Below are positions 45,903 through 61,914 of a stretch of 64,000 nt of DNA, one piece after another. Below the pieces are notes generated by a model that saw only the letters and a list, made by a program, of their open reading frames with translations, was not told where the DNA came from and searched no databases. The stretch covers positions 2,874,497 through 2,938,496 of the forward strand of contig OZ257136.1 of NCBI GenBank assembly GCA_965278995.1. Direction: 5' to 3'. The stretch's first letter is position 1; each line of letters opens with the position of its first letter. The translations under genes and the position numbers were made by a program. This DNA is from Gammaproteobacteria bacterium (GTDB taxonomy: Bacteria > Pseudomonadota > Gammaproteobacteria > Ga0077536).

Positions 45903-45972
45903 CTGCTAACGCGTCGAAGAGCGGCGTTGGAGCGCGCAGCGCGGAAGCGGCCGCTCGATTGGCGGGTTAAGT
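45903..45972. other. Integron attC site 1. It is the most diverged member of the attC family, with an inverse core TAAC and a core GTTAAG.
   Basis: It runs from GCCTGCTAAC to CCGCTCGATTGGCGGGTTAAG and is aligned to four other copies. Confidence 0.6.
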
Positions 45973-46612
45973 GCCGCGGTCTGCCAAACTAAGTGCAACA
46001 CCCTCATCGATCGCGGGTGGAGAACCGGCGTTACTGTCGGCTTCCTCGTCCGCCAAGACGGGGTTGTAAACATGACATACCACCAGCTCTCCGATAATGA
46101 ACAATACGTCATCGGCAGGCTTTGCCGCCAGCGGCGCAGCCTACGCTAAATCGCCTTTGCAGCGGGCCGTGCATCATCAGCCGCATACTCAAGCGGAACG
46201 CCACCCAGCACGACGGCCACTACCGGCCTGAAAAGGCCCACCAATATGCTGTCGCCAGGCGTCGTCGCAGCCGCCGTAATCGACACCATGGTCCATGTGA
46301 CTGGAAGCCCCATGGCCCGCGCGCTGCCCAGCCAATCGCGGCAGATTGCTCGGCAAGCGCCATATCAGCGAGCGTTCTAAACGCGTCGAGCGCGTGACCG
46401 GCTTCCTCGTCATCAAAAAGCGCAAAGCCCGCACCATGGCGCAAGCGGCCCGCGCCCTCACTCGCGCTATCCCACAACTCGATGCACGCTTCACGACCGT
46501 CACGCTCGACAACTTGACAACCGACCGCGCGAGCGGCTCGGATTTAAAACACCCGCCGAAGTATTCTTCGGCCCGTCCTAACGGTGCTGCACTTCAAAGT
46601 GGAATTCAAGCC

Positions 46613-46819
46613 TCAGTGCGAGGCCAGTTCTTCACGGACAATTTTGCGCACCAATTCTGGGGAGAGAACCTCTTCGCCCGAGCTGACGTGCGCTTTAAGT
46701 GCCTCGTTGATCAATGTCTGGTAGCCCTTACCAGACTTCTCCGACCGCAGTTTGAACTGTTGGAGAATTTCGTCATCAAGATAAATTGTGATACGAGTCT
46801 TTCCAAGCGGCGAGATCAC
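46613..46819 (-). CDS. BrnA-like ribbon-helix-helix antitoxin (COG3514 type) in a gene cassette
   Basis: It is a small protein (KGYQTLINEALKAHV) encoded downstream of a BrnT-like toxin, in the toxin-first order typical of BrnTA. Confidence 0.55.
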   Translation of the reverse strand: MISPLGKTRITIYLDDEILQQFKLRSEKSGKGYQTLINEALKAHVSSGEEVLSPELVRKIVREELASH

Positions 46820-46889
46820 TGCACCACGCTTGGCCTTCGAAAAGTCATATTCCTTTTTTTTAGTTCCGTCGCTCTTTCGGCTCGGCCAT

Positions 46890-47117
46890 TCAAACGGAGA
46901 TCAATCTGATATTTGCGCCACGGGGCGCCCATTTCACGACCATTAACGAATTAAAGAAGTTCATTCCTAAACTAACGAAACGCCGCTCGCCTTCGACGAA
47001 GGCGTCTTCCATTGTCAGGGCGTGGGGATCAATTAACACTCCGTCTCGTTTCGCGAGAGAAACCCCATGCTTCTGACGATTCGCTTCGTCCTTGGTCGGG
47101 TCATACTCGACGCTCAT
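46890..47117 (-). CDS. BrnT-like (DUF497/COG2929) ribonuclease toxin in a gene cassette
   Basis: MSVEYDPTKDEANRQKHGVSL...ERRFVSLG matches the BrnT family pattern. The start is internal to a longer ORF in the track. Confidence 0.55.
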   Translation of the reverse strand: MSVEYDPTKDEANRQKHGVSLAKRDGVLIDPHALTMEDAFVEGERRFVSLGMNFFNSLMVVKWAPRGANIRLISV

Positions 47118-47175
47118 TGAGTATGCACATTGTGCATATGGCGGAACAGAGGAGACGTTGAGAGGGTCAGTCTGA

Positions 47176-47244
47176 GGCCTAACGCGCCGATGATTGGCGG
47201 AGGAGTGCGCAGCACGAAGGCGTCCGCTCCATGGCTGGTTAGCC
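47176..47244. other. Integron attC site 2 (GGCCTAAC ... CGTCCGCTCCATGGCTGGTTAGC)
   Basis: It belongs to the same ~68-bp family as attC sites 3-5, with an imperfect internal dyad and unpaired bases. Confidence 0.7.
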
Positions 47245-47248
47245 ATCG

Positions 47249-48034
47249 CTACGGGAGTAGACCCAGGGATTGCAGACATGACCGACTGAGCTTCTCTCGC
47301 GTTGGACCCATTTCTGCATTCTTCATGTCCATGTTCAGGGCGAAGGGATAATTTATCCCACCGGAATTTACCCACCCGACCCACCAGCCGACACCTTCGT
47401 TCGGATAGTTCTGCCACCCAGACTTCGCCCAAAGGCCCCAGCCTTTGCCCTTGTCTTTGAGAAGGATTTCCTGGGTTTGAGTTTGCACCGTTTCGCTCAC
47501 CGGGAGACGATGAGCTACAAGCTTCGCAATGAAGCTGACCTGTTCGATTGCGCTGATCTGCAGTGGACCATCTAACCAGAATCGGTCTACTGCTTGGCCA
47601 ATCGTTTTATTCCCATAGTCGAAATACTCTAGCGCTTCGGCCATCCGGTTCAATCCGATTCGTCGGGCAAGCGTTTGGTATATCGCTACATTGGATAACA
47701 CGATTGCTTCGCGGAGGCTCATGTTCCGCTCCCATTCCTTGACTGGTTGCGGTTGCCCTCCGTATTCGAGAACCTCGTCAACGTCTTTGACGGCACCTAC
47801 GGTGAGTCCTATAAGCGTATTCGCGATCTTGAAGGTCGAGGCTGGGACGAACTGAGTGGTTGCGCGCTCTTGGTTGTAGCCAGTCATCTCTCCGGTTCGT
47901 GGGTCGAGGACAACAAAGGTGCCTGCTACGTTCGCTAGCCGAAACTGCTCGGCGAGATCGAGGTTCTCGGTCCACTGCGCCAAACACCGCAGCGGCACCA
48001 AGACCAACAAGAGAGCGGAAAGTGCTCTAATCAT
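47249..48034 (-). CDS. Class D (OXA-type) beta-lactamase gene cassette
   Basis: Motifs present: STFK, YGN, a KSG element, WWVGW and the omega-loop element QISAIEQVSF. A signal peptide is present. The stop lies 5 bp from attC site 2, and the start is 12 bp from the split attC site 3. Confidence 0.8.
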   Translation of the reverse strand: MIRALSALLLVLVPLRCLAQWTENLDLAEQFRLANVAGTFVVLDPRTGEMTGYNQERATTQFVPASTFKIANTLIGLTVGAVKDVDEVLEYGGQPQPVKEWERNMSLREAIVLSNVAIYQTLARRIGLNRMAEALEYFDYGNKTIGQAVDRFWLDGPLQISAIEQVSFIAKLVAHRLPVSETVQTQTQEILLKDKGKGWGLWAKSGWQNYPNEGVGWWVGWVNSGGINYPFALNMDMKNAEMGPTREKLSRSCLQSLGLLP

Positions 48035-48045
48035 TTTGATTGCGA

Positions 48046-48104
48046 TGCTTAACGTGCCGATGAGCGGCGTTGGAGTGCGAAGCACGGAAACGTCCGCTCG
48101 ATTG
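48046..48104. other. Integron attC site 3, left portion, interrupted by the IS insertion
   Basis: GCTTAACGTGCCGATGAGCGGCGTTGGAGTGCGAAGCACGGAAACGTCCGCTCGATTG matches the family, then diverges abruptly at about 48105. Confidence 0.65.
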
Positions 48105-49483
48105 ATGAAATGGACTCCTCCCGCACTTTTTGCGCCGGCATCAGTGTGCCAAAGTAGGGTTGTAACACGTCTACTTGCTCAGCTCAGGAGGAGTCCACCC
48201 ATGAAGTCTAAGATTATTGCTGTCGACCTGGCAAAGGATGTCTTCGAAGTCGCCGTCGCCGATCTCGATCACCACATCGTCGAGCGTCAGCGCTTGTCGC
48301 GCACGGCCTTCAGTCGCTTCATCTCGACACAACCGGCCGCGTTGGTGCTGGTCGAGTCGTGCGGCACCGCCCACTACTGGGCACGCCATGCCCAGGCCGC
48401 CGGACATCAGACCAAAATTATCCCGGCCCACTATGTCAAACCGTATCGCCGTCGCGGCAAGACCGACCGCGCTGACACCGAAGCCCTGCTTGAAGCCCAC
48501 CGTTGCCAAGGCATCAAGCCGGTCCCGCTGCGCTCCGTCGAGCAACAACAAATTCAACAACTCCACCGGGTGCGTGAGCAATGGAAGCGCACGCGCACCC
48601 AGCGTCTCAACGGACTGCGTGGGTTCTTACGTGAACTCGGCTTGGTTATTCCCGAAGGCGCCAAGCTCGCGCAACGGCGAGCTCATGCGTTCCTCAACGA
48701 CGACGCCATTCCGCCGCCCTTGAAGAGTGTCTTCACGCGCCTGCTCGAAGAAATCAAAACCCTCGAGAGCGACATCGCCGCCGTCGAACGACAGCTCAAG
48801 GCCCTGACCCAAGCCAATGCCGGCGTACAACGGTTACAGACCGTCGCCGGTGTCGGTCTGTTGACCAGTACCGCCATGGTCGCCGCCGCTGGCTCACCGC
48901 ATCATTTCCCCGACGGGCGTCATTTTGCCAGTTGGCTTGGCCTGACCCCACGCGAGTACAGCTCTGGTAATCAGCCGGTCCTCGGGCGGATCTCCAAGCA
49001 GGGCGACTGGGATCTGCGCATGCTGCTCACCCATGGCGCGCGCTCAGTGCTCACCAGGGCCAAGCAACTGCAACGCGTCGGAAAGACCCTGACCCGTCTG
49101 CAACAATGGGCCTGCACGCTCGAACGGCGGGTCGGTCATAACAAGGCGACCTGCGCCATCGCCAACAAGCTCGCTCGGATCTGTTGGGCCGTATGGAAAT
49201 CTGAAACCGACTTCGACGCTAACCGCGCCGCCGCTTAACCCCTCAACCCGTTTGCGTAGAGACTATCGCGTTCATGACATTTTGGTTGGACCAGTACCGA
49301 TGAAAGCCGATAACCAGCTTGCTCAGCCAAGAGCATTTCGATCGATTGGCACTCGGTGCGCGGATCTTCATGATGGCCCGGCCTCGACCAACGAGAGCCA
49401 CAGCGAGGCCGGATACACGACTGCAAACGACACCAACCGTCAGCAACGCACCTTCGTCTCTACTTGTGGGAGGAGTCCATACA
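48105..49483 (+). mobile_element. IS110-family insertion sequence of the attC-targeting IS1111 group (about 1.38 kb), inserted in attC site 3
   Basis: It carries a DEDD transposase ORF. Subterminal repeats CTACTTG-N-GGAGGAGTCCA lie near both ends (48171-48200 and 49457-49480). The flanks reconstitute an attC site. Confidence 0.65.
48201..49238 (+). CDS. IS110-family (DEDD) transposase
   Basis: The N-terminus MKSKIIAVDLAKDVFEVAV is present. The C-terminal Transposase_20-like region has VAGVGLLTSTAMVAAAG. An AGGAGG ribosome-binding site is present. Confidence 0.85.
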   Translation: MKSKIIAVDLAKDVFEVAVADLDHHIVERQRLSRTAFSRFISTQPAALVLVESCGTAHYWARHAQAAGHQTKIIPAHYVKPYRRRGKTDRADTEALLEAHRCQGIKPVPLRSVEQQQIQQLHRVREQWKRTRTQRLNGLRGFLRELGLVIPEGAKLAQRRAHAFLNDDAIPPPLKSVFTRLLEEIKTLESDIAAVERQLKALTQANAGVQRLQTVAGVGLLTSTAMVAAAGSPHHFPDGRHFASWLGLTPREYSSGNQPVLGRISKQGDWDLRMLLTHGARSVLTRAKQLQRVGKTLTRLQQWACTLERRVGHNKATCAIANKLARICWAVWKSETDFDANRAAA

Positions 49484-49510
49484 GGCTGGTTAGGCATCGC
49501 GTAGGTTAGC
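49484..49510. other. Integron attC site 3, right portion (GGCTGGTTAGG, with a second GTTAGCC copy)
   Basis: It matches the 3-prime ends of the other attC copies immediately after the IS right end. Confidence 0.5.
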
Positions 49511-49955
49511 CCCGGCGTACGGCCAAGAACGCCCCGGCCGACATTAAAACCAGGCCGACAAGTCTTTGTAAAGATAGCGTGTGCACCTGTGCGCCCAGTA
49601 GCCCAAATTGGTCTATGGCGGCCATTGAGATGAGCTGTCCGAGCAGGACAAATGCCACAGCATTGCCGACACCGAATTGTGGAGCTACCCAGGTAACGCT
49701 TAAAACGTAGAAGGCGACGAAGACACCCCCTAAATAGAAATAGAACGGGATTGATGCTTTGGGCGAAAGTCTCAGGCCACCTCCTACGGTGAACAGGAAA
49801 GCGAGCGAAACGCATAATGCCACCAGAAACAATACGGAGGCGGCGAAAGACGGGCTACCGTACGTAGAACCTAATTTGGAACTAAGCGCGGCCATAACAG
49901 GAATGCCTATACCCGTAGTAACCATAAGACAAGCAAAGAATAGTTGGTTTGCCAT
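49506..49955 (-). CDS. Small DMT-superfamily (EamA/DUF606-like) membrane protein cassette
   Basis: It is 149 aa with 4-5 transmembrane helices. Its stop lies within the attC core. Confidence 0.55.
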   Translation of the reverse strand: MANQLFFACLMVTTGIGIPVMAALSSKLGSTYGSPSFAASVLFLVALCVSLAFLFTVGGGLRLSPKASIPFYFYLGGVFVAFYVLSVTWVAPQFGVGNAVAFVLLGQLISMAAIDQFGLLGAQVHTLSLQRLVGLVLMSAGAFLAVRRG

Positions 49956-50080
49956 AGGTCGAACTCATCTAGTTATTCAAGGTGTAGGACGACAAGTTGA
50001 GGCGCGCGGACATTCAATGCAGCTCTTTGTAAATCTACTCGCGCCTTGAGAATGCGGCAACACCAACTATGCAGCGCGAT

Positions 50081-50150
50081 GCCTCAACGCGCCGATGAGC
50101 GGCGTTGGAGCGCGAAGCACGGAGGCGTCCGCTCGATTGGCTGGTTAGCT
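50081..50150. other. Integron attC site 4 (GCCTCAACGCGCCGATGAGCGGCGTTGGAGCGCGAAGCACGGAGGCGTCCGCTCGATTGGCTGGTTAGC)
   Basis: Family alignment. Confidence 0.7.
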
Positions 50151-50474
50151 GTCACTTCGTATTGCAACTTCGATATAGCTGCCGTTCGTGGCCGACGCAA
50201 TTGCGTCAACTACTGAGGCGATGGACGTTTGGATCCGCGGCCAGCTTGTCGTAGTTAACACGACGATCGAGATTTGGCGGGTATCGAGGTTCTGCTGGTA
50301 CTTCAGGTTCTGGTCTGTTGTTACCAACACATCGAATCCGTTCGCTTCGGCTTGACTCAAAAGGTCGCCATTCTGCAGAGAACCCCAGCCTCGCTCATAG
50401 GCCGTTTCAATTTCATGGGAACCGAGGTGCTTGCGAAGAGGAACTGGTGTTCCCTGATCAAACAGGATCCGCAC
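50145..50474 (-). CDS. DUF5615-type PIN-like putative toxin
   Basis: MRILFDQGTPVPL...DVLVTTDQNL matches the family. It is coupled to an upstream DUF433 partner. Confidence 0.5.
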   Translation of the reverse strand: MRILFDQGTPVPLRKHLGSHEIETAYERGWGSLQNGDLLSQAEANGFDVLVTTDQNLKYQQNLDTRQISIVVLTTTSWPRIQTSIASVVDAIASATNGSYIEVAIRSDS

Positions 50475-50693
50475 TCACGCGACTTCCAGGGATCGAGCTG
50501 CGTGTTCAAGGACTTTTCGAGCTTGGTCTAGGGTAACTCCGGGAAACCACTCCAGAAATTCTGAGATCTGGGCGCCGTCCTCAAGGTTTTCGAATAGCGC
50601 AGATACCGGAACCCGTGTGCCCCGAAACACCCACGCGCCGCTCACCATGTCTGGATCGCGATGGACAGCAGCGCATGTGGACCAATCAATCAT
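50475..50693 (-). CDS. DUF433 (COG2442) putative antitoxin
   Basis: GAWVFRGTRVPVSALFENLEDG is the DUF433 signature. Its stop overlaps the DUF5615 start. Confidence 0.5.
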   Translation of the reverse strand: MIDWSTCAAVHRDPDMVSGAWVFRGTRVPVSALFENLEDGAQISEFLEWFPGVTLDQARKVLEHAARSLEVA

Positions 50694-50733
50694 GAGTTGA
50701 TGCTACGCCAGGTCTGCACGGGGTTCAACGTGA

Positions 50734-50803
50734 CAGCTAACGTGCCGATGAGCGGCCTTGGAGCGCGAAGCGCGGAAACGTCCGCTCGATTGGCTGGTTA
50801 GAG
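50734..50803. other. Integron attC site 5 (AGCTAACGTGCCGATGAGCGGCCTTGGAGCGCGAAGCGCGGAAACGTCCGCTCGATTGGCTGGTTAGAG)
   Basis: Family alignment. The BrnA-like gene stop lies in its core. Confidence 0.7.
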
Positions 50804-51076
50804 CGAGGCTTCTTTGAACGCACGAAGCACCGCATTGATGCGAGTCTGATAGCCTGGACCTTGAGATCTAAACCACTCAAGAACATCCGCGTCTACGCGC
50901 AGCGCGATTGATGCCTTTGGCGGGATTGGCTTTAGACCCCTGCGGACTATACCGCCGACGATATGCTTGACCTTCGCCTCGGGATGCTCAGGAGATAGCT
51001 TAATGTCGCGGCCGCTTTGCGCACGTACCCGCGCCCAATCAGTTTTGGAGGTTTTCGAAGAGGATGCTTTCTTCAT
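50798..51076 (-). CDS. BrnA-like antitoxin, second copy
   Basis: GPGYQTRINAVLRAFKEA is present. It overlaps the upstream BrnT-like gene. Confidence 0.5.
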   Translation of the reverse strand: MKKASSSKTSKTDWARVRAQSGRDIKLSPEHPEAKVKHIVGGIVRRGLKPIPPKASIALRVDADVLEWFRSQGPGYQTRINAVLRAFKEASL

Positions 51077-51314
51077 TTCGGGTAGCCTTACGGGATGAGA
51101 TGACGTGGATTTCGGTTGAAGTCTCGGTATGAATTATTGATGTTGTTACCCCACCGAGGAAGCCAAGCGTTACAAAACGCTGCTCTCGGTACACAAAGCG
51201 ATTATCTTCGAAGGTAAACGTTGGCCCTTCAAAAACCCGCGGGGTGTCAACGAAATCAAAGCCATGTTCTTTAAGGTTAGTGCGGCGCTTTGGTTCGTCC
51301 CATGTGAATCGCAT
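51039..51314 (-). CDS. BrnT-like (DUF497) toxin, second copy
   Basis: MRFTWDEPKRRTNLKEHGFDF...QRFVTLG is present. Confidence 0.55.
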   Translation of the reverse strand: MRFTWDEPKRRTNLKEHGFDFVDTPRVFEGPTFTFEDNRFVYREQRFVTLGFLGGVTTSIIHTETSTEIHVISSRKATRNEESILFENLQN

Positions 51315-51365
51315 GCATCTAATGTATATACACTATGTAGATTCGTCAATCCACGACTGCGCCTC

Positions 51366-51452
51366 GCTCTAACATTCAGTAGCCATCATCCCAACCTTAT
51401 TACGCTCGTCAATCTGACGTTGAATTCCAGGTCGGAGTTAAGGCTACAGTCG
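51366..51452. other. Possible degenerate sixth attC site (CTCTAAC ... GGAGTTAAGG)
   Basis: It has an inverse-core-like TAAC and a core-like GTTAAG about 80 bp apart, with short internal inverted repeats. The call is weak. Confidence 0.25.
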
Positions 51453-52020
51453 AGTGCGAATCGGTGCGAGTGAGATGTTCAATTTTTACATCAGCAATTT
51501 GTAGTATGAGGTTGCCAGCGCCGCCAGTCATTGGCGGGAGTAGAACGCGATGATATACGTCAAACTGAAGTGATCGAAGCTACGTCCGGCCTTGCTGGAG
51601 CGCAGGTTGGCGTTCGTTGCCCGGCACGATTGTGATCGCGTATCCGGTGAATGGTTCGGAGCTACCAGGAGCTGGCTTTTTGGTTGCCTTCTATCGATCG
51701 TGTGGGTTCGGCTGTCCGAGTGCGTTAGTACCGCATTCGCACGGAGCGGGCTTACCTGTATTGGAACTGCGGCCGCGACTACGAACACCAGGAGGTGCCG
51801 CTTTACGGCATTTCAATGGCAGTGAACAGCGCCAGTACTATTATCCATATGACAGCACTGACCAGGAGGGGAGTTCTTCCGACACCCACCGCCATGCGCC
51901 ATTACTGCCGCACTGATGATCAGGAATATCGTTACGGCGAATAGAAACTTGATCACACTGTGATTGAGGATATGGTCGTGCAGGGTACGCAGAATCAAGC
52001 GTTGTATGCGCCGCACTATC

Positions 52021-52992
52021 TCATGTCCCGCCGTCGCTGAATTCAGGCTCCATCGGCACCACACAAGGTGCGGGCTGCTGATTGAACATCAGTCGCAGCA
52101 CGTCGGGGCGCGAATAATGGCCAACGGGGTCGGCCGCAGCTTTGGCAAACATGATAGCGCCCAAGTCGATGTCAGCGATGACGAGGCCTTCGACATCCGG
52201 CGCGAGTGGTGCGCACAAAGGGGCGCCATCCGGCCCGAACAGCCGTGAATGGCCACCGCCGACTCGCAACAGTTCACGCTTCGGCTGCGTATCGCATAGC
52301 AATTCGACTATCGCCGGCGATACCACGGCGCACGCGGCCAGCACGAAACATTGCCCTTCGGCAGCATAGATCTGGCTGGCAGCGACATTGAGTTCCGGGC
52401 CGAGCGCGTAAGCGGCGCCGACATACAGACTGAAGCTCGGCCAGCAGGCGATGTGAATTTGTTCGTGCTGCGCATACATCGCGTACTTGGTCAGCGGCTG
52501 CAGATGTTCCCAGCAGCACAATTGACCGATGCGCCCGAGCGGCGTGGCGCAGACTTTGAGATGGCTGCCATCGCTCTCGCCGAACAGCGTCCGTTCGACA
52601 TGTGTAGGCTTCAGCTTGCGTCGACGGATAATCAATTCGCCGTCCGCGCCATACAGCCACTGCCCCATGTACAGACTCCCGCCATCGCGTTCAGCGACGC
52701 CGACCGAGACCGTCATGCCGTTGCGCCTCGCTGCAGCGCCGAGTGCGAGGTCGTGCCGACTGCCCGCTACGATCGAATTGGCGTGATAACGCCCGACCAG
52801 CGGCATCGTCCAGGCCGGTGCATCCAGCCACAGAAAGAACGGGTAGCCTGGTATCCACGTTTCCGGAAATGCGAGCAGTTCGACACCGGCCCGCCCAGCT
52901 TCGTCGATCAGTGCGATGGTCTTCTCGACACTTGCTTCAAGATCGAGATACGCCGGCGCTGCCTGCACTGCGGCGACCTTGATGGTGCTCAT
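52021..52992 (-). CDS. Nitrilase / carbon-nitrogen hydrolase family
   Basis: The catalytic motifs FPETWIPGY and GQLCCWEH give the Glu-Lys-Cys triad context. Confidence 0.85.
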   Translation of the reverse strand: MSTIKVAAVQAAPAYLDLEASVEKTIALIDEAGRAGVELLAFPETWIPGYPFFLWLDAPAWTMPLVGRYHANSIVAGSRHDLALGAAARRNGMTVSVGVAERDGGSLYMGQWLYGADGELIIRRRKLKPTHVERTLFGESDGSHLKVCATPLGRIGQLCCWEHLQPLTKYAMYAQHEQIHIACWPSFSLYVGAAYALGPELNVAASQIYAAEGQCFVLAACAVVSPAIVELLCDTQPKRELLRVGGGHSRLFGPDGAPLCAPLAPDVEGLVIADIDLGAIMFAKAAADPVGHYSRPDVLRLMFNQQPAPCVVPMEPEFSDGGT

Positions 52993-53026
52993 TGTCTGCT
53001 CCCCGTGCGTGCGCGAGCGGCGGCGA

Positions 53027-53821
53027 TCAACCGCACTGTCCGGCGCAGAATGTATCGAGTACCGGATCGGATTGCATGCGCATCACGGCCTGGGAATAGA
53101 TGGGTATGCCGAAACGATAGTGGCCCGCAGGCAGCCGATCAGGCAGTTCCGGTGCGCAGGCTGCACCGAAGGACGCGGCCGGTTTACCGACAGAAGCGAA
53201 AGTCGTGATGATGCGATTGACGAACGGCACCACGAGTTCGTAGCAGATACCGACATGAACCTTGATCAGATTGGCATCCTGTACCGATTGCTGAGAAGTC
53301 GGATCGGTCGCCGAACTGCGATACATGAGGTTGTCGTTGGGGATACGCGTGGTACCGGCGACAGTGACGCCGTGCTGTCCGAGAAAAGATTCCTCACGCG
53401 GGTTGATCAGCAGAATGCGTGCGTAGCCGTCGCTCAACATATCGCGGACGCGCTGCCGCGCGCATTTAACATCATCGAGATCCGGTTCGCCGTCGTGGCC
53501 GGTAATGTCGTCGAGGCTCGCAGGCCCGGTGCAGACTTCGCCGGCCATGGTGACGTAAGGCGTCGTATAGAGCGGCGCGAGCGAACGCGCAAACGCGAGC
53601 TCCATGGCCCACATGCGTGCATTGTTCAGTGCACCGGCGCGTGCAGTTTCGAATGCGGCGTAGTTCAGCGTCGTCTTCGCCTGGTAGATCAGCCCGAACT
53701 GAACCGCCCCAAGGATCAGCATCAACAGTACCGGCATGACGTAGATAAACTCGACCATCGCCTGCCCACCAGCATGACCCCGTGCCTGGGCGCCGCCCCG
53801 ATTGCGGGCAACGCTAGCCAT
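53027..53821 (-). CDS. TadE/TadG-like pilus assembly protein
   Basis: The N-terminus has AMVEFIYVMPVLLMLILGAVQFG (TadE-like domain). The true start may be internal. Confidence 0.55.
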   Translation of the reverse strand: MASVARNRGGAQARGHAGGQAMVEFIYVMPVLLMLILGAVQFGLIYQAKTTLNYAAFETARAGALNNARMWAMELAFARSLAPLYTTPYVTMAGEVCTGPASLDDITGHDGEPDLDDVKCARQRVRDMLSDGYARILLINPREESFLGQHGVTVAGTTRIPNDNLMYRSSATDPTSQQSVQDANLIKVHVGICYELVVPFVNRIITTFASVGKPAASFGAACAPELPDRLPAGHYRFGIPIYSQAVMRMQSDPVLDTFCAGQCG

Positions 53822-54431
53822 CTTCCGGGACTACCGCTGGCACAGCAGCCGGCGCGGATGCTTTGGGCACGGCGGGTACCGGCGCCACCGCAGGACCAGC
53901 GACCTGCCCTTTGCCATCGTCGTCGAGGATTTCCAGGATGGCGGCATAAGCATCCGCAGCTTGGCGACGCGTCGGATCGTCACCAGTCACGTGCACTTCC
54001 ATCTTGTGAAAGCTGTTCGCTGCCTGGCGCAATTGCACGATGCCCATGTTGAACCAGGCTTTCGCAAGCTCGGGTTCGCGCACCAGCGCTTCGCGGTAGG
54101 AAGCGACCGCGAGATCGGGACGGTCGGTACGCGCGTAGATATTACCGAGCTTGAACCAGTGATCGGCTTCCTGCGGGATCTCGCGGACCAGCGCGACATA
54201 ATGCGTTTCTGCCGCCGCCCAATCGCCCGCCGTATAGCTCTGCTGGGCGCGTTCGCGGATGACCTTGATATCGACTGCCGTGTCGTCCACCACGGGATCC
54301 GACGCGTTTCGCTGCGGCGCGTTCTGACAGGCGGCCAGCAGCAGCGTAAGTATGGCTGCGGCAACTCGCGCGCTTACGCTCTGCACCACGCGCCTGCGCT
54401 CGTCCGGGCCATGCAGATTCTCGCTGGCCAT
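53814..54431 (-). CDS. TPR-repeat lipoprotein (TadD-like)
   Basis: It has a lipobox LLLAACQ and TPR-like helices (WFKLGNIYARTDRPDLAVASYREAL). Confidence 0.5.
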   Translation of the reverse strand: MASENLHGPDERRRVVQSVSARVAAAILTLLLAACQNAPQRNASDPVVDDTAVDIKVIRERAQQSYTAGDWAAAETHYVALVREIPQEADHWFKLGNIYARTDRPDLAVASYREALVREPELAKAWFNMGIVQLRQAANSFHKMEVHVTGDDPTRRQAADAYAAILEILDDDGKGQVAGPAVAPVPAVPKASAPAAVPAVVPEDG

Positions 54432-54434
54432 ACT

Positions 54435-55322
54435 TCAGCTCTGGGCCAGGAACTTCATCACTATCGGGAACGCGAGCACGATGAAGGTGACAGGGAAAAT
54501 GAACAGGATGAGCGGGCCGACGAGCTTGATCGGCGCTTCCATGGCCAGTTTTTCGGCGCGCTGGAAACGTTCGTTGCGCCGCTGCTCGGCTTGAACGCGG
54601 AGCACGGTGGCTAGACTGGCGCCCATCTTTTCCGCCTGCACGACCGCGCTGACGAAGCTGGTGACTTCAGTGATATCGAGCCTGTCGGCCATGCGGCGCA
54701 ATGCGTCGGCGCGCGTCAGTCCAGAACGCAGGTCGCGCAGCACGATGGCGAATTCGTTCCGCAACGGTCCGGGCGGGGCCTTTTCCATCGACTGCGCCAG
54801 CGCACCCGACAGGTTGAGGCCCGCTTCGACGCACATCGTGATGAAATCAAGGTAGATAGGCATGCTGCGGATGACAGCAAGTTCGCGGCGTTTGCGCGTG
54901 TCCGCCAGCCATACGTTGGGAAACAGAAATCCGAGCAGCGGCGCAAGCAGGATGGCAAGCGGGAACGACTTGCCCATCACCATCAGACAGACCCAGATGA
55001 TCGGCGGCAAAATGAGCGCCATGAAGAATTGCAGCGCAACGAATTGTTCGGCGGTCAGCAGATAACTGACGCCGGTACGTTGCAGCCGCTTCTCGGTATG
55101 TTCCATGTAATCGTAGGGCAGGAACGGGCAGACGAAATTGGCGATGATGCGGATGAACGGCCAGATCAGTTTCAGCAGCGGCGGCAGCGGATCCATGTAG
55201 GACCGATCTTCCTCCTCGACCAGTGTATTGATCCACGACACCAGCAACCAGAAACAGACTGCCGACAGCGCCCACCCGCTGATACTGAGCCAGGGCAGGG
55301 TTCCATCGAGTGATTGATCCAT
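54435..55322 (-). CDS. tadC: Type II secretion system F-domain pilus platform protein (TadC-like)
   Basis: It has GspF-like helices and a position within the tad-like locus. Confidence 0.7.
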   Translation of the reverse strand: MDQSLDGTLPWLSISGWALSAVCFWLLVSWINTLVEEEDRSYMDPLPPLLKLIWPFIRIIANFVCPFLPYDYMEHTEKRLQRTGVSYLLTAEQFVALQFFMALILPPIIWVCLMVMGKSFPLAILLAPLLGFLFPNVWLADTRKRRELAVIRSMPIYLDFITMCVEAGLNLSGALAQSMEKAPPGPLRNEFAIVLRDLRSGLTRADALRRMADRLDITEVTSFVSAVVQAEKMGASLATVLRVQAEQRRNERFQRAEKLAMEAPIKLVGPLILFIFPVTFIVLAFPIVMKFLAQS

Positions 55323-55334
55323 CGTGAAGCCTGC

Positions 55335-56215
55335 TCAGACGTCAATCGAAGTGATTTTCGTGATCATCAGGTAGCCGAGTATTTCCATCACCACGATGAT
55401 GGACAGTACAGCCCAGCCGATACCCGTCGTCCACAGTTTGCTCATCGCTTCGGGTTCGAGGAAATTGAGCAGTACACCGAGCAGCACGGGCAACCCGGTC
55501 ATGACGATACCCTGCAGCTTGCCCTGCGCGGTTAAACTGCGGATCTTGCCTTCCATCGTCGACTTGCGACGCAATGTATCGGCCAGCGATTCGACCGTCT
55601 CGGCCAGGTTACCGCCGACTTCGCGGTTGATGCGGAGTGCTGTCGTCAGCATTCGGAAATCCTGCATCGGGATACGCTTTTCCATGTTCTTCAGCGAGAC
55701 ATCGAATTCGACGCCGAGGCGCTGTTCCTGAGTCAGGATCTCGAACTCCTGACTAATCGGCACCGGCTGCTCATTGACCAGATTGTCGAGCGCTATCGAC
55801 AGACTGGCGCCGGCCCTCAAGGCACCTGAGACCATCGCCAGCGCATCGGGTAACTGGGCTTCGATGCGGGCCAGCCGCTTGTTACGCATCGAGCGATAGA
55901 CATACGTTGGCAGCACCAGAATCAGCACGAACACAGCGAGCGTCGAGACCAGGTCGCCGAGCAGTATCCACACCAGCAGCGGAAGCACGCCGAGCGCAAT
56001 CAGGTTCATGCGGAACAAGCGGTTGGGATCGACGAACATGAACATGTCAGCCATGTTCGACGAGGCCGAAGCGGTGAAATCTTCGCGATACTTGACCATC
56101 TTGGACTGCGCTTTCACGCCGAGAATGATCCAGGCGGTGGTGGCGCACAGAAACATCGCGGCCAGCGCCGCGGGAAACGCGAACGTCGCGACCAGTCTGT
56201 AGAAACTCTCAGCCA

Positions 56216-56216
<1 letters not shown>
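55335..56216 (-). CDS. tadB: Type II secretion system F-domain pilus platform protein (TadB-like)
   Basis: It has a GspF-like domain and is coupled to the cpaF stop. Confidence 0.7.
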
Positions 56217-57961
<1,745 letters not shown>

Positions 57962-57973
57962 ACTGAATCCGCC

Positions 57974-59512
57974 TCAATCAAGCAACTTGAATGCATTACC
58001 GCGCATCGATTCGACGAATTCGCCGAGCTGCTTCTGCTCACGCTGGACGGCATCGACGTTCTCCTGATGTGCGGCGTCGTAGACCTGCGGCGTGACGAAT
58101 ATCACGAGATCGGTCTTGGAATCGCGAAACGCCCGCGACTTGAACAGGTGGCCGATGATCGGGATCGCGCTCAACCCTTTTAGTCCAGTCGTGTCGCGGC
58201 CGAGTTCGCGGTCGACCAGCCCCGACATGACCAATGTCTCGCCGGACTGGATCAGGATGTCGGCGTTCGTACGGCGGGTCAGGAAGCCAGGCGTATTGCC
58301 GACTGCGACGGACTGATCGACGGCGCTGATCTCGGTCTCGACCTTGGCCCGAATGTTGTCCTGCTTGTCGACCTCGGGCTTGATGTTGAGCAGGATACCG
58401 AACTGCTTGAACTCGATGGCAGCGCTGGTCGGCGTGACAATCTCGATCGGCACTTCGCCGCCGGCGAGGAAGCTCGCCTCACCGCCGCTCCGGGCGACCA
58501 GGCGCGGTTCGGCCAGGATCAGGGCATCGCCGGAACTGACCGCCAGATTGATCCGCGACGTGATTTCGGTGGCGATACCGAAATAGCCGAAGCTGGTGTC
58601 GGTTACTGCCGGATCGAGCACGGACAGCGAGTCCGGCGCATTGGCCCCGCCCAGCACGGTCACACCGTTGGTCCGCGAGCCACCGAAACCGGTTTCCGAT
58701 GACAGCGCCGCTGCCGGTCCGGCAAAACTGTTGCTCCAGTTGATGCCGAGATTGTCTGCCGCGCTTTTGTTGAATTCAGTGATCTTGATATGCATCAGGA
58801 CCATCTTGTCGTCGGGCAGATCGACGATGTCCTTACGGGTCAAATCCATCACTTCCTGATAGGCGCCCATGATCGTCGTGATGTTGTCGGCATAGGTGTT
58901 ATCGATAGTGCCAGTCAGCACGATACGGCTGCCGACAAGACGCACTTCAATGCCCTGGATATGCTGGACGAGCTGCTGGACCTCTGAAAGCTTCGTCGAC
59001 AATGACAGATCGAGAATTTCCGCATAGCCCGCTTTGACCTGCGCGACCAGCGCGCTGTAGCGTCCGTCGTACTGACCGGAAACGACTATCTTGTCACCGA
59101 CCACTGCGAGATCGATGCCGGGCACATGGCCAAGCAGTTTCTGCACCTGAGCGAATTTCTGCTGCAGTACCGCGCTGTTGACGGCCAGCGCATAGTCGGT
59201 CGGCTCGACGGTGAACTCGAGTTCACTCTCCTGACCGTTCTTCAACCATAGATGCAATTCGGTGACACCCGGTGCCTCGCCGAAAACCAGCAGCTGGCCG
59301 TTTTTCAGCAGCGATGTACTGATGACGGCGGCATTGCCGACAGCAACCCGATCGACATCGCCAGGTTGCAGGATGCGGATCTCGCCGACTTTCAAATTGG
59401 CCGCCAGGGCGTTCGCCCCGCACACCAGCAATATCGTTGCCCAGAGTATGGTCCGCAGCAGCGCGTTTCGCGTGCGATGACGCAAGTTCAGAGTATCCCT
59501 GGTGACCGCCAT
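57974..59512 (-). CDS. cpaC: Secretin (CpaC/RcpA family) with N-terminal BON-like repeats
   Basis: The secretin C-domain has AEPRLVARSGGEASFLAGGEVPI and GLSAIPIIGHLFKS. There is a signal peptide. Confidence 0.8.
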   Translation of the reverse strand: MAVTRDTLNLRHRTRNALLRTILWATILLVCGANALAANLKVGEIRILQPGDVDRVAVGNAAVISTSLLKNGQLLVFGEAPGVTELHLWLKNGQESELEFTVEPTDYALAVNSAVLQQKFAQVQKLLGHVPGIDLAVVGDKIVVSGQYDGRYSALVAQVKAGYAEILDLSLSTKLSEVQQLVQHIQGIEVRLVGSRIVLTGTIDNTYADNITTIMGAYQEVMDLTRKDIVDLPDDKMVLMHIKITEFNKSAADNLGINWSNSFAGPAAALSSETGFGGSRTNGVTVLGGANAPDSLSVLDPAVTDTSFGYFGIATEITSRINLAVSSGDALILAEPRLVARSGGEASFLAGGEVPIEIVTPTSAAIEFKQFGILLNIKPEVDKQDNIRAKVETEISAVDQSVAVGNTPGFLTRRTNADILIQSGETLVMSGLVDRELGRDTTGLKGLSAIPIIGHLFKSRAFRDSKTDLVIFVTPQVYDAAHQENVDAVQREQKQLGEFVESMRGNAFKLLD

Positions 59513-59547
59513 GTACTGATCCCCTCGCGTGCCGTGTTGTTTGTTGT

Positions 59548-59874
59548 TCATTGCAGTATCGGCAGACGGCCAACTTTGGCCGCACCATCCGCGCTGTTCC
59601 CGCCGGTAATCATCTCGATTGACGGTCCGGCCCGTACCCGCGGTGCCGGCGCAGTGCCGTCCGTCGGTGTGATGATGGCACCGCCGCTCGCAGACTCAGT
59701 GCCCGTGTCGGTGGCCGGCGACTGCGGCAGTTCCGCCGGGCTGGCCGCCGGTGCTTCATCGACTTTTCCGGCCGCCCCTGCGGACAACGCCATCGACCAG
59801 ACGCAGCCAAGCACAGCCCAGCGACACAGCGTCGATATCCGCCGCCGTGATCGATGAATTGCCATCGACTGCAT
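59548..59874 (-). CDS. Small secreted Pro/Ala-rich hypothetical protein between the cpaB-like and cpaC genes
   Basis: It is an ORF with a signal-peptide-like N-terminus; the call is weak. Confidence 0.3.
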   Translation of the reverse strand: MQSMAIHRSRRRISTLCRWAVLGCVWSMALSAGAAGKVDEAPAASPAELPQSPATDTGTESASGGAIITPTDGTAPAPRVRAGPSIEMITGGNSADGAAKVGRLPILQ

Positions 59875-59876
59875 CT

Positions 59877-61826
59877 TCAGTCGCTCGTCTTCAACGTCGT
59901 CGACTTGGCAACGCCATCGGTTGGCGAACCGCCGATGATGAGGTCAATCTTGCGCGCGCCGCCACCTATCGGCGTGCTAGCGGCGACGCTTGCAACCTGC
60001 GCTGCCGTCAGCGTGTGACCACTGCTGTCGACGACATTGCCGGCGGCATCGACTTTCAGTCCGGCCGAGGCGAGCTGTGCTTCACTCAGTACACCGTTCT
60101 TGGTCATGACCAGCGTTGCCGGGTTGACCACATTGCCGGCTTCGTCGACGACTTCACCATTGGCGTTCAAGGTCAAGCCCGCCGCCGCGAGCTGCTCCGC
60201 GTTGATCACTTTGCCGCTGGCATCGGTGACCAGAGTGGTGGGGTCGACGACCTTACCGCTGGCATCGACCAGTTCGCCTTTTTCGTTCATCGTCAGCCCG
60301 GCAGCCGCCAGCTGCGCGGGTGTCAGCAGTTCTCCGTTGGCAGTGACGACCAGCTTGTCGGGGTCGACGACATTGCCGGCTGCATCGACTATCTCGCCCT
60401 TGTCGTTGACGGTGAGGCCCGCTGCAGCGAGCTGTTCAGCCGTCAACAATCGGCCGTCGGCCGTCTTGATGAGCTTCGCCGTGTCGATGACCCTGCCGCT
60501 GGCATCGACGACTTCGCCGCGTTCGTTCACGCTCAATCCCGCCGCAGCCAGTTGCTGGCGAGTGACGATGTCGCCGTTTGCCGTCACGATGACATCTTCG
60601 GCCGAGACGATGTTGCCGTCCTTGTCGACGATTTGTCCGCTGGCATTGACGGTAAGGCCGGCTTTGGCCAGTTGTGCGCGATCGAGCACGCGACCATCGG
60701 CGGCGATGACGAGATTGGCCGGGTCGACAACCTTGCCATCCTTGTCGACAAGTTGCCCTTTGTCGTTGACCGTGAGGCCGGCTTTGGCCAGCTGCTCGCG
60801 GCTCATGATGCGATTGCCGTCGGCGTCGACGAGATTGCCGGCCTGGTCGACGCCGCTCGCAACGGCGACCCGGGTGCGGCGTTCGCCCTCGGCCTGGGCC
60901 ATGGTGAACGCATTACTGAAAAGATCCTGCGCAGACAGCGTCGAAAAGTCAGACAAGCCTTCGTCATTGCGATTGCGCAATAGTGCCAGCAAGTCGCCTT
61001 TGTCGAGTGCTGCGGTAACGAGTGCAGCCTCGCGCGGGCTGACGTCGAGTGTGATGGTGTTGTAGTTGCGTTCGGCACGCGGCTGCGGATAGTTCAGCGC
61101 ATCGAGTTCCTCGCGGTAAGGGTCACGCCCGGTGGCCAGCACACGCACACTCTGAAGCACCGGCAGAATGACATCCTTCGGCAGGGCATTCGCGACGAGC
61201 TGCTGGATCTCGGTATCGCCGGTATTGGCCCCGCGCGCCGCATCGAGCAGTGCACGTGGAATGGCATCACGTAGCTGGCTCGGGATCGCATCGACGAGAT
61301 CGGCGGTGATGAAGCCGGCCGAGAAGCCGGAGAAACCTGAGGGAATATTGACGAACAGATCGATGCGATTGCCGGGACGAATGAAGCCGGCGACGGAATT
61401 GATGTCATCGACCTGGACTGTCATCGCGCGTCGCCCGACCGGCACCGTATCGGAGAAATCGACCGGGAACCCGGTATCGAGATAGCTCTTCAGTATCGGT
61501 TTGCCCGCGCTGACATCAGCCTCGATGACCCGGCCGAGGTACTTTTCGAAATCGCCGGCAGGAACTGCATCGTTGGAGACGAATCCAGCCGGGATCTTGC
61601 GCTGAGACAGGACTTCGCGGCGCAACACGCTGCCTTTCGGGAGGTCGGTGCCGGCAACCAGTACGGTGACCTGCTTGCGGTCGGCACCGGCATATTTTTC
61701 GATCAACGCCGCTTTTTCGCTCTTCAAATAGACATACGAGAGCGCGGCCGCAACCAGCCCGAAAACGATAGCGCCAATCAGTAGCGGAATACCCAGTACG
61801 CTGCTGTTGTCTCGCGGCTCGGCCAT
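59877..61826 (-). CDS. cpaB: CpaB/RcpC-like pilus assembly protein (SAF domain) fused to about seven C-terminal ~40-aa tandem repeats
   Basis: The N-terminus has a transmembrane helix plus a CpaB-like region (RKQVTVLVAGTDLPKGSVL). The C-terminus has repeats of the form AEQLAAAGLTVNDKGEIVDAAGNVVDPDKLVVTANGELLT. Confidence 0.75.
   Translation of the reverse strand: MAEPRDNSSVLGIPLLIGAIVFGLVAAALSYVYLKSEKAALIEKYAGADRKQVTVLVAGTDLPKGSVLRREVLSQRKIPAGFVSNDAVPAGDFEKYLGRVIEADVSAGKPILKSYLDTGFPVDFSDTVPVGRRAMTVQVDDINSVAGFIRPGNRIDLFVNIPSGFSGFSAGFITADLVDAIPSQLRDAIPRALLDAARGANTGDTEIQQLVANALPKDVILPVLQSVRVLATGRDPYREELDALNYPQPRAERNYNTITLDVSPREAALVTAALDKGDLLALLRNRNDEGLSDFSTLSAQDLFSNAFTMAQAEGERRTRVAVASGVDQAGNLVDADGNRIMSREQLAKAGLTVNDKGQLVDKDGKVVDPANLVIAADGRVLDRAQLAKAGLTVNASGQIVDKDGNIVSAEDVIVTANGDIVTRQQLAAAGLSVNERGEVVDASGRVIDTAKLIKTADGRLLTAEQLAAAGLTVNDKGEIVDAAGNVVDPDKLVVTANGELLTPAQLAAAGLTMNEKGELVDASGKVVDPTTLVTDASGKVINAEQLAAAGLTLNANGEVVDEAGNVVNPATLVMTKNGVLSEAQLASAGLKVDAAGNVVDSSGHTLTAAQVASVAASTPIGGGARKIDLIIGGSPTDGVAKSTTLKTSD
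59990..60850. repeat. Imperfect 120-bp tandem repeat (about 7 units) inside the cpaB-like gene
   Basis: The motifs GGGTCGACGAC and GCCGCCAGCTG recur with a 120-bp period (e.g. 60121, 60241, 60361, 60481, 60601, 60721). Confidence 0.7.
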
Positions 61827-61914
61827 GCGTGATGCCCCCTGTCTAGCTGCATTTGTCTTTATTCATCATGGCGGTTATTCACACCGCCGGCGGCTCGTGC
61901 CGCACTATCCCTAT

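Follow-up and report, generated by a model that had tools for sequence, protein, structure and literature searches.

The locus analyzed here raises a twofold question: does the gene on the minus strand at positions 47249-48034 of a 64-kb stretch of gammaproteobacterial DNA (64,000 nucleotides (nt) of contig OZ257136.1, assembly GCA_965278995.1; hereafter the window, to which all coordinates refer unless another locus is named) encode a genuine class D (OXA-type) beta-lactamase, and is this gene a mobile integron cassette? OXA genes are classic cargo of integron cassettes (PMC7148499), novel class D cassettes have already been found in metagenomic and amplicon surveys (PMC6598227, PMC7370490), and some of these are reported to make E. 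coli less susceptible to carbapenems (PMC6598227 citing PMC5732528; PMC7370490). The evidence described below makes it very probable that the gene product is a secreted, stand-alone class D enzyme of an unnamed lineage, carried on a bona fide cassette of 870 base pairs (bp) within a decayed chromosomal integron. The gene itself is as follows:

47249..48034, minus strand: coding sequence (CDS) of a class D beta-lactamase, 261 amino acids (aa) plus stop, identified by hidden Markov model (HMM), motifs, structural model and relatives

The open reading frame (ORF) begins with ATG at 48034, ends with TAG at 47251-47249 and comprises 261 codons. A first-pass annotation made from the sequence had assigned it to class D and listed a series of signature elements, all of which are found in the order given there: STFK (residues 66-69), SNV (114-116), YGN (140-142), FWLDGPLQISAIEQ (152-165), KSG (204-206) and WWVGW (217-221), with Ser66 and Lys69 as the predicted catalytic residues. 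The class assignment is borne out by the curated NCBIfam model NF012161 (bla_class_D_main), whose cut-off of 250 bits is exceeded by the protein with a score of 269.4 bits (E 2e-80) over model positions 2-235 of 236, by the fold and by the cassette context. The PDB sequence matches are to class D enzymes with E values of 1e-46 to 4e-52, including all of the top 60; the best match is FUS-1/OXA-85 (4IED; E 3.6e-52), and OXA-10, OXA-23 and OXA-48 score near 1e-48. The AlphaFold2 model, for which 55 homologues served as input, has a mean pLDDT (predicted local distance difference test) of 93.6 and a predicted template modeling (TM) score, pTM, of 0.88, and in a Foldseek comparison its top 50 structural matches are all class D beta-lactamases, among them OXA-85, OXA-10, OXA-48 and OXA-163 (TM 0.86-0.96, root-mean-square deviation (rmsd) 1.5-2.5 Å, identity 35-39%).

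The catalytic apparatus is conserved throughout the group: S66, K69, S114, N115, G141, N142, W153, K204, G206 and the WW.GW motif are invariant across the 55 relatives, and R246 is nearly so. In the alignments with the OXA-10 and OXA-13 chains, Trp153 of the FWLDG motif occupies the position of the tryptophan in FWLEG, and Val116 is present as well; these two residues are the equivalents of Trp154 and Val117 of OXA-10, which support the N-carboxylated lysine. Carboxylation of Lys69 itself is a prediction. Comparison with four homologous genes yields dN/dS values of 0.09-0.28, that is, the gene is under strong purifying selection. Each of these four homologues is exactly 786 nt long and has ATG or GTG at the position of 48034, and for this reason the 261-aa form is considered to be the real protein. 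A database gene call of 278 aa (P0001) that begins with GTG at 48085 was rejected, given that this start lies inside the preceding attC and outside the cassette; its 17 extra residues (48035-48085) are almost certainly an annotation artefact.

The signal peptide proposed in the first-pass annotation is recognizable on inspection: the n, h and c regions typical of Sec signal peptides can be discerned in the N-terminus, MIRALSALLLVLVPLRCLA followed by QW, with a CLA/QW cleavage site (residues 1-19). This segment is modeled with low pLDDT and is not covered by any of the PDB alignments, and export by the Sec system is predicted. A lipoprotein reading of the LRC tripeptide was discarded, also by inspection, because arginine at position -1 does not fit a lipobox.

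Given that the only Pfam match of the protein is the generic Transpeptidase family PF00905 (E 3e-33), and that BlaR sensor domains have the class D fold, the possibility has to be considered that the gene encodes a sensor domain of the BlaR1/MecR1 type or a fragment of a penicillin-binding transpeptidase. This explanation is effectively refuted by the data. The ORF is a stand-alone one of 261 aa with its own signal sequence and without a membrane or zinc-protease domain; the ends of the cassette, located 18 nt before and 4 nt behind it, rule out a fused transducer; and the cut-off of the curated class D equivalog is passed, while the structural and sequence matches in PDB are class D enzymes, not penicillin-binding proteins or BlaR sensors. 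Neither of the outcomes that the first-pass annotation had named as refuting it, namely best hits of this kind or the absence of the Ser/Lys motif, was therefore observed.

Where within class D the protein belongs was addressed by HMM and sequence searches, as the first-pass annotation had proposed, and these place it in a novel lineage outside all named OXA families. The 24 named-subfamily NCBIfam models (25 best rows) all score far below their own cut-offs: 252 bits against 600 for the OXA-50 variant model, 250 against 580 for OXA-50, 237 against 575 for OXA-837, 217 against 550 for OXA-60 and 184 against 550 for the OXA-85 family model. Therefore the spectrum of no characterized OXA enzyme can be transferred to this protein. 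Among the 72,556 plasmid records of PLSDB, there is no match with at least 60% identity, and the relatives that are found there are distant ones:

Azotobacter chroococcum, OXA-50-like gene: 49.8% identity (best match)
Providencia plasmids, unnamed class D genes: 47.7% identity
Ralstonia, OXA-60-like genes: ~43% identity
OXA-48: 37% identity

In a collection of 5.8 billion proteins, the identical protein occurs on one 5.7-Mb NCBI contig and on one 7.8-kb ENA contig. The clade relatives with 60-86% identity come only from metagenomes or metagenome-assembled genomes (MAGs), with none on a known plasmid, and named organisms (Isoalcanivorax, Natronospira, Wenzhouxiangella, Methylobacillus, Methylomonas, Vreelandella, Salinisphaera, Microbulbifer) appear only at 57% identity or less. 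At the 90% level, one protein of the window clusters with a protein from an unclassified Gammaproteobacteria MAG in which a 74% OXA homologue is present as well. Judged from these comparisons, the OXA protein is a distinct, unnamed environmental lineage within class D.

The second part of the question, whether the gene is a cassette, is answered by its immediate surroundings, namely the following features:

47183..48052, minus strand: OXA gene cassette, 870 bp, defined by core sequences and an attC spacing of 870
47177..47244, minus strand: attC of the OXA cassette, 68 nt, with R'' GGCTAAC at 47244-47238 and R' GTTAGGC at 47183-47177
45908-45970, 47181-47243, 48051-48104 (truncated), 50086-50148 and 50739-50801, plus strand as listed: copies of the attC repeat, located by repeat finding

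The cassette extends from the TT of the upstream R' core (G/TTAAGC) to the G of its own R' core (G/TTAGGC), with a leader of 18 nt ahead of the ATG, and its attC begins 4 nt past the stop codon. This attC belongs to a 63-nt repeat family with five copies within 45.9-50.8 kb, whose identity to the reference copy is 75-92%. On the minus strand, every copy begins directly at a stop codon or shortly behind it and consists of R'' (RYYYAAC), imperfect L'' and L' arms with an extrahelical base, and R' (GTTRRRY). The copies at 47181-47243 and 48051-48104 flank the gene, in agreement with the first-pass annotation, which described a cassette with a single gene bracketed by attC sites. From the five sites, a covariance model was built; it recovers all five attCs in the 64-kb window with 67-94 bits and detects nothing else there but weak opposite-strand echoes of two of the five; the model is host-specific and missed most of the sites in two of the homologous arrays discussed below (L082 and L084), which were read by eye. 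A strict search with the expression GCCTAAC...GTTAGGC gave no matches because the core sequences vary, and no Rfam RNA family matched in the array or in the insertion sequence (IS) next to the gene. Site stability was assessed by comparing forced canonical folds among orthologues, single-sequence fold z-scores being uninformative. By this measure, the OXA cassette attC, the most divergent of the array (75% identity), forms a canonical hairpin of -12.3 kcal/mol, compared to -25.3 and -24.0 kcal/mol for the attCs of its closest relatives, L096 and L097.

The five repeats are very much alike, as would be expected of host-specific repeats, and the window contains no intact integrase; hence an intrinsic chromosomal gene that lies between species-specific repetitive extragenic palindromic (REP)-like repeats, with no cassette involved, would be conceivable. 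This alternative is, however, highly improbable. The repeats possess the R'' and R' cores and the L''/L' arms with an extrahelical base, share one orientation and each lie behind a stop codon; the gene together with its repeat occurs between other neighbors in L096 and L097, and homologues are found in arrays with other types of attC; one repeat was hit at the canonical position by an IS of an attC-specific type; and a remnant of the N-terminal part of intI is located at the expected end of the array and on the expected strand (see below). The OXA gene is a bona fide integron gene cassette.

The homologous cassettes in other arrays bear directly on mobility. L096, from an activated-sludge metagenome, and L097 hold the closest relatives, with 86% and 80% aa identity, respectively, and share with the window the 18-nt leader (TTAGGCATCGCAAT followed by C or G and AAA before the start codon), the 3' spacer TAGCGATGCCTAAC and the same attC family, with 81-82% nucleotide identity in the attC and 80-86% in the CDS; the neighboring cassettes differ. 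The presence of the gene and its attC between different neighbors in L096 and L097 is evidence that the OXA cassette has moved in the past. More distant homologues are embedded in a variety of contexts. In L084 and L086/L087 (69-76% aa identity), the arrays contain attCs of ~108 nt (L084, 2060-2190; L086, 5742-5860) that resemble the sites of their own arrays, including those of the neighboring cassettes, and are unlike positions 47177-47248 of the window. In L082, the OXA homologue is part of a long array in which small genes on one strand are accompanied by eroded sites; a short attC-like site is present in L095 (Methylomonas, 52% aa identity), and L088 and L092 have eroded sites in non-array surroundings. 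In L094 (Wenzhouxiangella sp. CP061368.1, 2173-8783; 52% aa identity), a group II intron interrupts the attC that belongs to the OXA cassette; three copies of the intron (RVT_1 plus GIIM ORF, 5' GTGTG) are present in this array, and they apparently are of the group IIC-attC type.

The homologous OXA cassettes of L084, L086 and L088 retain the 18-nt leader and the 3' end TAGCGATGsCTrAC, even in cases of saturated synonymous sites, yet their attC bodies are unrelated. Between the window (47177-47248) and L088 (5787-5900), the CDS is 86% identical at the nucleotide level and the similarity ends right past the R'' core. This pattern suggests replacement or homogenization of attCs within arrays. 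A more far-reaching proposal, which we regard as possible but rather unlikely, is that the clade represents an unrecognized integron-borne class D family with carbapenemase potential, in circulation among environmental arrays that include those of activated sludge, or else that homologous cassettes have had their attC bodies exchanged at the R'' core. Carbapenem hydrolysis by the clade may be envisaged from two weak hints: the short loop between strands beta5 and beta6, which has the length of the OXA-24 loop grafted into OXA-10, and the annotation as carbapenemases of OXA-60 and OXA-1206, which are among the closer named families by model score. A carbapenem-hydrolyzing family, if real, would constitute a pre-clinical reservoir open to capture by class 1 integrons, and attC replacement at the core site, if real, would bear on how cassettes get their attCs.

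Whether the cassette is still mobile depends on the state of the array, beginning with the IS that occupies the attC upstream of the OXA gene:

48105..49483 (within 1 nt), plus strand: IS of the IS1111-attC type, 1380 bp including one ambiguous junction G
48201..49238, plus strand: IS110-family (DEDD) transposase, 345 aa (PF01548 and PF02371)
48110..48125, plus strand: left subterminal inverted repeat ATGGACTCCTCCCGCA, from a repeat search; the ends of ISPa62 are similar
49465..49480, plus strand: right subterminal inverted repeat TGTGGGAGGAGTCCAT, from a repeat search and comparison with ISPa62
48047..48104, minus strand: 3' part of the split attC of cassette 3 (L''-loop-L'-R', R' GTTAAGC), cut from R'' by the IS
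49484..49500, minus strand: 5' part of the same attC (R'' GCCTAAC plus spacer), recognized as a member of the repeat family

The IS lies next to the OXA gene, as the first-pass annotation stated, but it is actually located inside the upstream attC rather than merely adjacent to it: when 49500..49484 is joined to 48104..48047, the attC consensus reappears, with a single G being ambiguous and without any target duplication, and the rejoined site forms the best hairpin of the array (-27.4 kcal/mol). The inverted repeats lie 3-5 nt from the element ends, and the transposase matches NF033542 with 295.9 bits (cut-off 140). For the classification, the published account of the IS1111-attC group (PMC11187229) and a direct comparison with ISPa62 in p1160-VIM were employed; in this plasmid, ISPa62 has two insertions within class 1 integron attCs (aadA1, catB3). 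Given that the best named relative of the transposase, that of ISPa62, reaches no more than 49.9% identity, the element can be classified as a new member of the IS1111-attC type.

The attC-targeting IS1111 members ISKpn4, ISPst6 and ISPa25 choose their targets via a seekRNA encoded downstream of tnp (PMC11187229). In the present IS, the non-coding region downstream of tnp is 245 nt long (49239-49483); within it, TCGATTGGC (49342-49350) equals the uninterrupted attC target across the junction and TAACCAGC (49311-49318) equals the R'' region on the other strand. The non-coding region of ISPa62 (L090, 6042-6307) contains analogous segments, GGCTTGAACG and TAACAAT, that correspond to the aadA1 attC targeted by ISPa62. 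These candidate seekRNA guide segments look as if they covary with the target attC; since the match in the present IS alone is not significant (137/2000 shuffles), only the parallel between the two elements carries weight.

At the other end of the array, the integrase gene has nearly disappeared:

51672..51764, plus strand: remnant of the intI N-terminus, reading IDRVGSAVRVR, an in-frame stop and YRIRTERAYLYW, detected by tblastn and Pfam

The best match in a tblastn search of IntI1 against the window covers 24 residues (51693-51764, plus strand; E 0.36), and the Phage_int_SAM_4 model of Pfam matches the remnant once its stop is exchanged for H, with E 0.0065 and a score short of the gathering threshold. 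The match is at the place and on the strand expected for a divergent intI, and no similarity extends beyond it; the remnant comprises ~24-30 codons, and a CN-hydrolase (nitrilase-type) gene follows at 52021-52992. With moderate confidence, this segment can be considered a relic of intI. The box II motif of tyrosine recombinases was not found in any of the six frames of the window, and no intact intI was found next to the attI-side region or the array, so that the locus does not qualify as a complete integron. The mobilizable context put forward in the first-pass annotation is accordingly an overstatement: because its own attC is weak, the upstream attC is split by the IS and intI is reduced to a remnant, the OXA cassette is predicted to be poorly mobilizable at present, that is, stranded. 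Excision would require an integrase in trans and, in addition, either loss of the IS or co-excision of ydcZ, the IS and the OXA gene as one unit.

On the minus strand, the array runs from the attI-side region through cassettes 1-3 to the OXA gene, which is cassette 4, and then to cassette 5. The remaining components are:

50798..51314, minus strand: cassette 1, BrnT/BrnA toxin-antitoxin pair, attC at 50739-50801
50145..50693, minus strand: cassette 2, DUF433/DUF5615 pair, likely toxin-antitoxin, attC at 50086-50148
49506..49955, minus strand: cassette 3, YdcZ-type membrane protein of the drug/metabolite transporter (DMT) superfamily (PF04657, E 1e-30), attC split by the IS
46613..47117, minus strand: cassette 5, a further BrnT/BrnA pair, which directly follows the OXA cassette (Pfam)
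45975..46600, plus strand: frameshifted and internally deleted remnant of an IS30-family element (NF033563, E 1.4e-5, hand-spliced frames)
45904..45970, minus strand: last attC, R' GTTAGCA, the end of the array, adjoining a short-chain dehydrogenase/reductase (SDR) gene

Cassette 1 starts at a GTTAGAG core near 51371, and the IS30-family remnant is located between the stop codon of the second BrnA and the last attC. Of the five cassettes, three thus hold toxin-antitoxin pairs (the two BrnT/BrnA pairs, which differ from each other, and the DUF433/DUF5615 pair), and these pairs could serve in array stabilization and provide internal promoters. The G+C content of the array region (46000-52000) is 0.51-0.56 compared to ~0.60-0.64 in the surrounding chromosome, which is consistent with foreign cassette DNA. 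Beside the array, at 53000-61900, there is a Tad/Flp-type pilus cluster that includes a CpaF-like ATPase (56216-57961) and a secretin-like gene (57974-59551); among the matches of this ATPase listed for GTDB species representatives, the best full-length identities are 50-63%, spread over scattered taxa, and one partial match reaches 71%.

Several observations weigh against an active enzyme in a decayed integron. The 18-nt leader of the OXA cassette has no recognizable Shine-Dalgarno sequence and the cassette contains no promoter; the sole promoter-like site nearby is a weak one (9/12 match) in the left end of the IS that faces the gene (48234-48205, minus strand), promoter-like matches are not clearly enriched over shuffles, and the IS separates the gene from the attI-side promoter region, where there is another promoter-like match (51412-51385, minus strand). 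Expression of the OXA gene is, on these signals, doubtful. Furthermore, the named-family models remain far below their cut-offs, the canonical fold of the OXA attC is not its minimum-energy structure, the 24-aa intI match is weak when taken alone, and an intact intI could reside elsewhere in the genome, outside the window.

From the same body of evidence it can be argued that the gene encodes a protein with the class D fold that binds beta-lactams and hydrolyzes them poorly or not at all, or has another role, after the model of YbxI, and hence is no resistance determinant. Consistent with this possibility, the protein belongs to no characterized OXA family, the Nostoc YbxI class D protein is among its close structural matches (rank 41), the expression signals are weak, and cassettes of chromosomal arrays mostly are of unknown or non-resistance function, those adjacent to the OXA gene being toxin-antitoxin pairs and a membrane protein. 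Nevertheless, we consider it improbable, although less so than the sensor-domain and REP-like explanations discussed above. The catalytic residues and those that support the carboxy-lysine are all invariant in the clade, and purifying selection is strong; among the named families, the nearest ones (OXA-50, OXA-60, OXA-837 and OXA-1206) carry annotations as active oxacillinases or carbapenemases; and novel integron-borne class D genes from environmental integron amplicons are reported to lower the carbapenem susceptibility of E. coli (PMC6598227 citing PMC5732528).

For an active class D enzyme, which is the preferred interpretation, the likely course of catalysis can be outlined by analogy with established OXA chemistry. 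After Sec export, Ser66 of STFK would be acylated upon opening of the beta-lactam ring; Lys69, held in a hydrophobic pocket with Val116 and Trp153 among its residues and N-carboxylated by CO2, would act as the general base for both acylation and deacylation; and Ser114, the Lys204-Ser-Gly element and Arg246 would position the substrate. Penicillins and oxacillin-type drugs would be the likely substrates, and weak turnover of carbapenems might be possible. Decay of the integron is seen in the reduction of intI to its N-terminal remnant, the insertion of an IS1111-attC-type IS into the upstream attC, the IS30 relic in the next cassette and the loss of hairpin stability by the OXA attC.

Class D cassettes on integrons are a main route by which OXA resistance has reached pathogens. 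The locus adds an unnamed lineage with less than 50% identity to any named OXA family, whose nature as a mobile cassette is demonstrated by its occurrence in several environmental arrays. This lineage is of use in the surveillance of resistomes and is a candidate for functional tests. The locus further provides a clean example of the decay of a chromosomal integron (intI deletion, IS1111-attC insertion, IS30 relic and attC erosion) and adds a new attC-targeting IS with putative guide segments that appear to covary with the target. What is new here is the class D lineage and the IS; IS1111-attC insertions, integrase-less arrays and OXA cassettes are known categories, and current understanding is unchanged.

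Compared to characterized class D enzymes, the protein resembles several and belongs with none. The OXA-50 family and OXA-50-like models (NF000432 and NF047495) are the best-scoring named ones, with an end-to-end alignment over residues 5-261 and the same motifs and length class, but the scores of 250-252 bits against cut-offs of 580-600 make the protein a non-member. Moreover, OXA-50 is a resident chromosomal gene of Pseudomonas aeruginosa, whereas the present gene is a cassette with its own attC. With the OXA-10 and OXA-2-type cassettes of class 1 integrons, the gene shares the organization of a promoterless single-gene class D cassette that ends in an attC, and the fold matches that of OXA-10 (TM ~0.88-0.94); the differences are that identity to OXA-10 is only 35-36% and that the gene resides in a decayed chromosomal array rather than in a mobile class 1 integron. 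Between KSG and WWVGW, the beta5-beta6 loop lacks 3 residues relative to OXA-13 and OXA-10 and aligns without gaps to that of OXA-10loop24, engineered to hydrolyze carbapenems according to the PDB titles; as a clue to the spectrum, this can be only a hint. FUS-1/OXA-85 of Fusobacterium nucleatum (4IED) is the best match by both sequence and fold (TM 0.90/0.95, rmsd 1.8 Å), but only at 38-39% identity.

The IS conforms to the IS1111-attC group (ISPa62, ISKpn4, ISPst6, ISPa25) in its DEDD transposase, subterminal inverted repeats and lack of target duplication. It further shares with ISPa62 nearly identical ends (AATGGACTCyyCCC) and a long non-coding region downstream of tnp, and, with the ISPa62 copies in p1160-VIM, the insertion point 5-6 nt 3' of the R'' AAC and the orientation of tnp opposite to the cassettes. 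It differs from the named elements in the divergence of the transposase and in targeting another attC family. Finally, the array as a whole resembles a degraded sedentary chromosomal integron, or cluster of attC sites lacking an integron integrase (CALIN, a term that reportedly goes back to Cury et al. in 2016), with its same-orientation cassettes, attCs that are 75-92% identical, abundance of toxin-antitoxin genes and lack of a functional integrase, but it still has a recognizable intI N-terminal remnant and an attI-side region; because these two remain, the array is caught between a complete integron and a CALIN.

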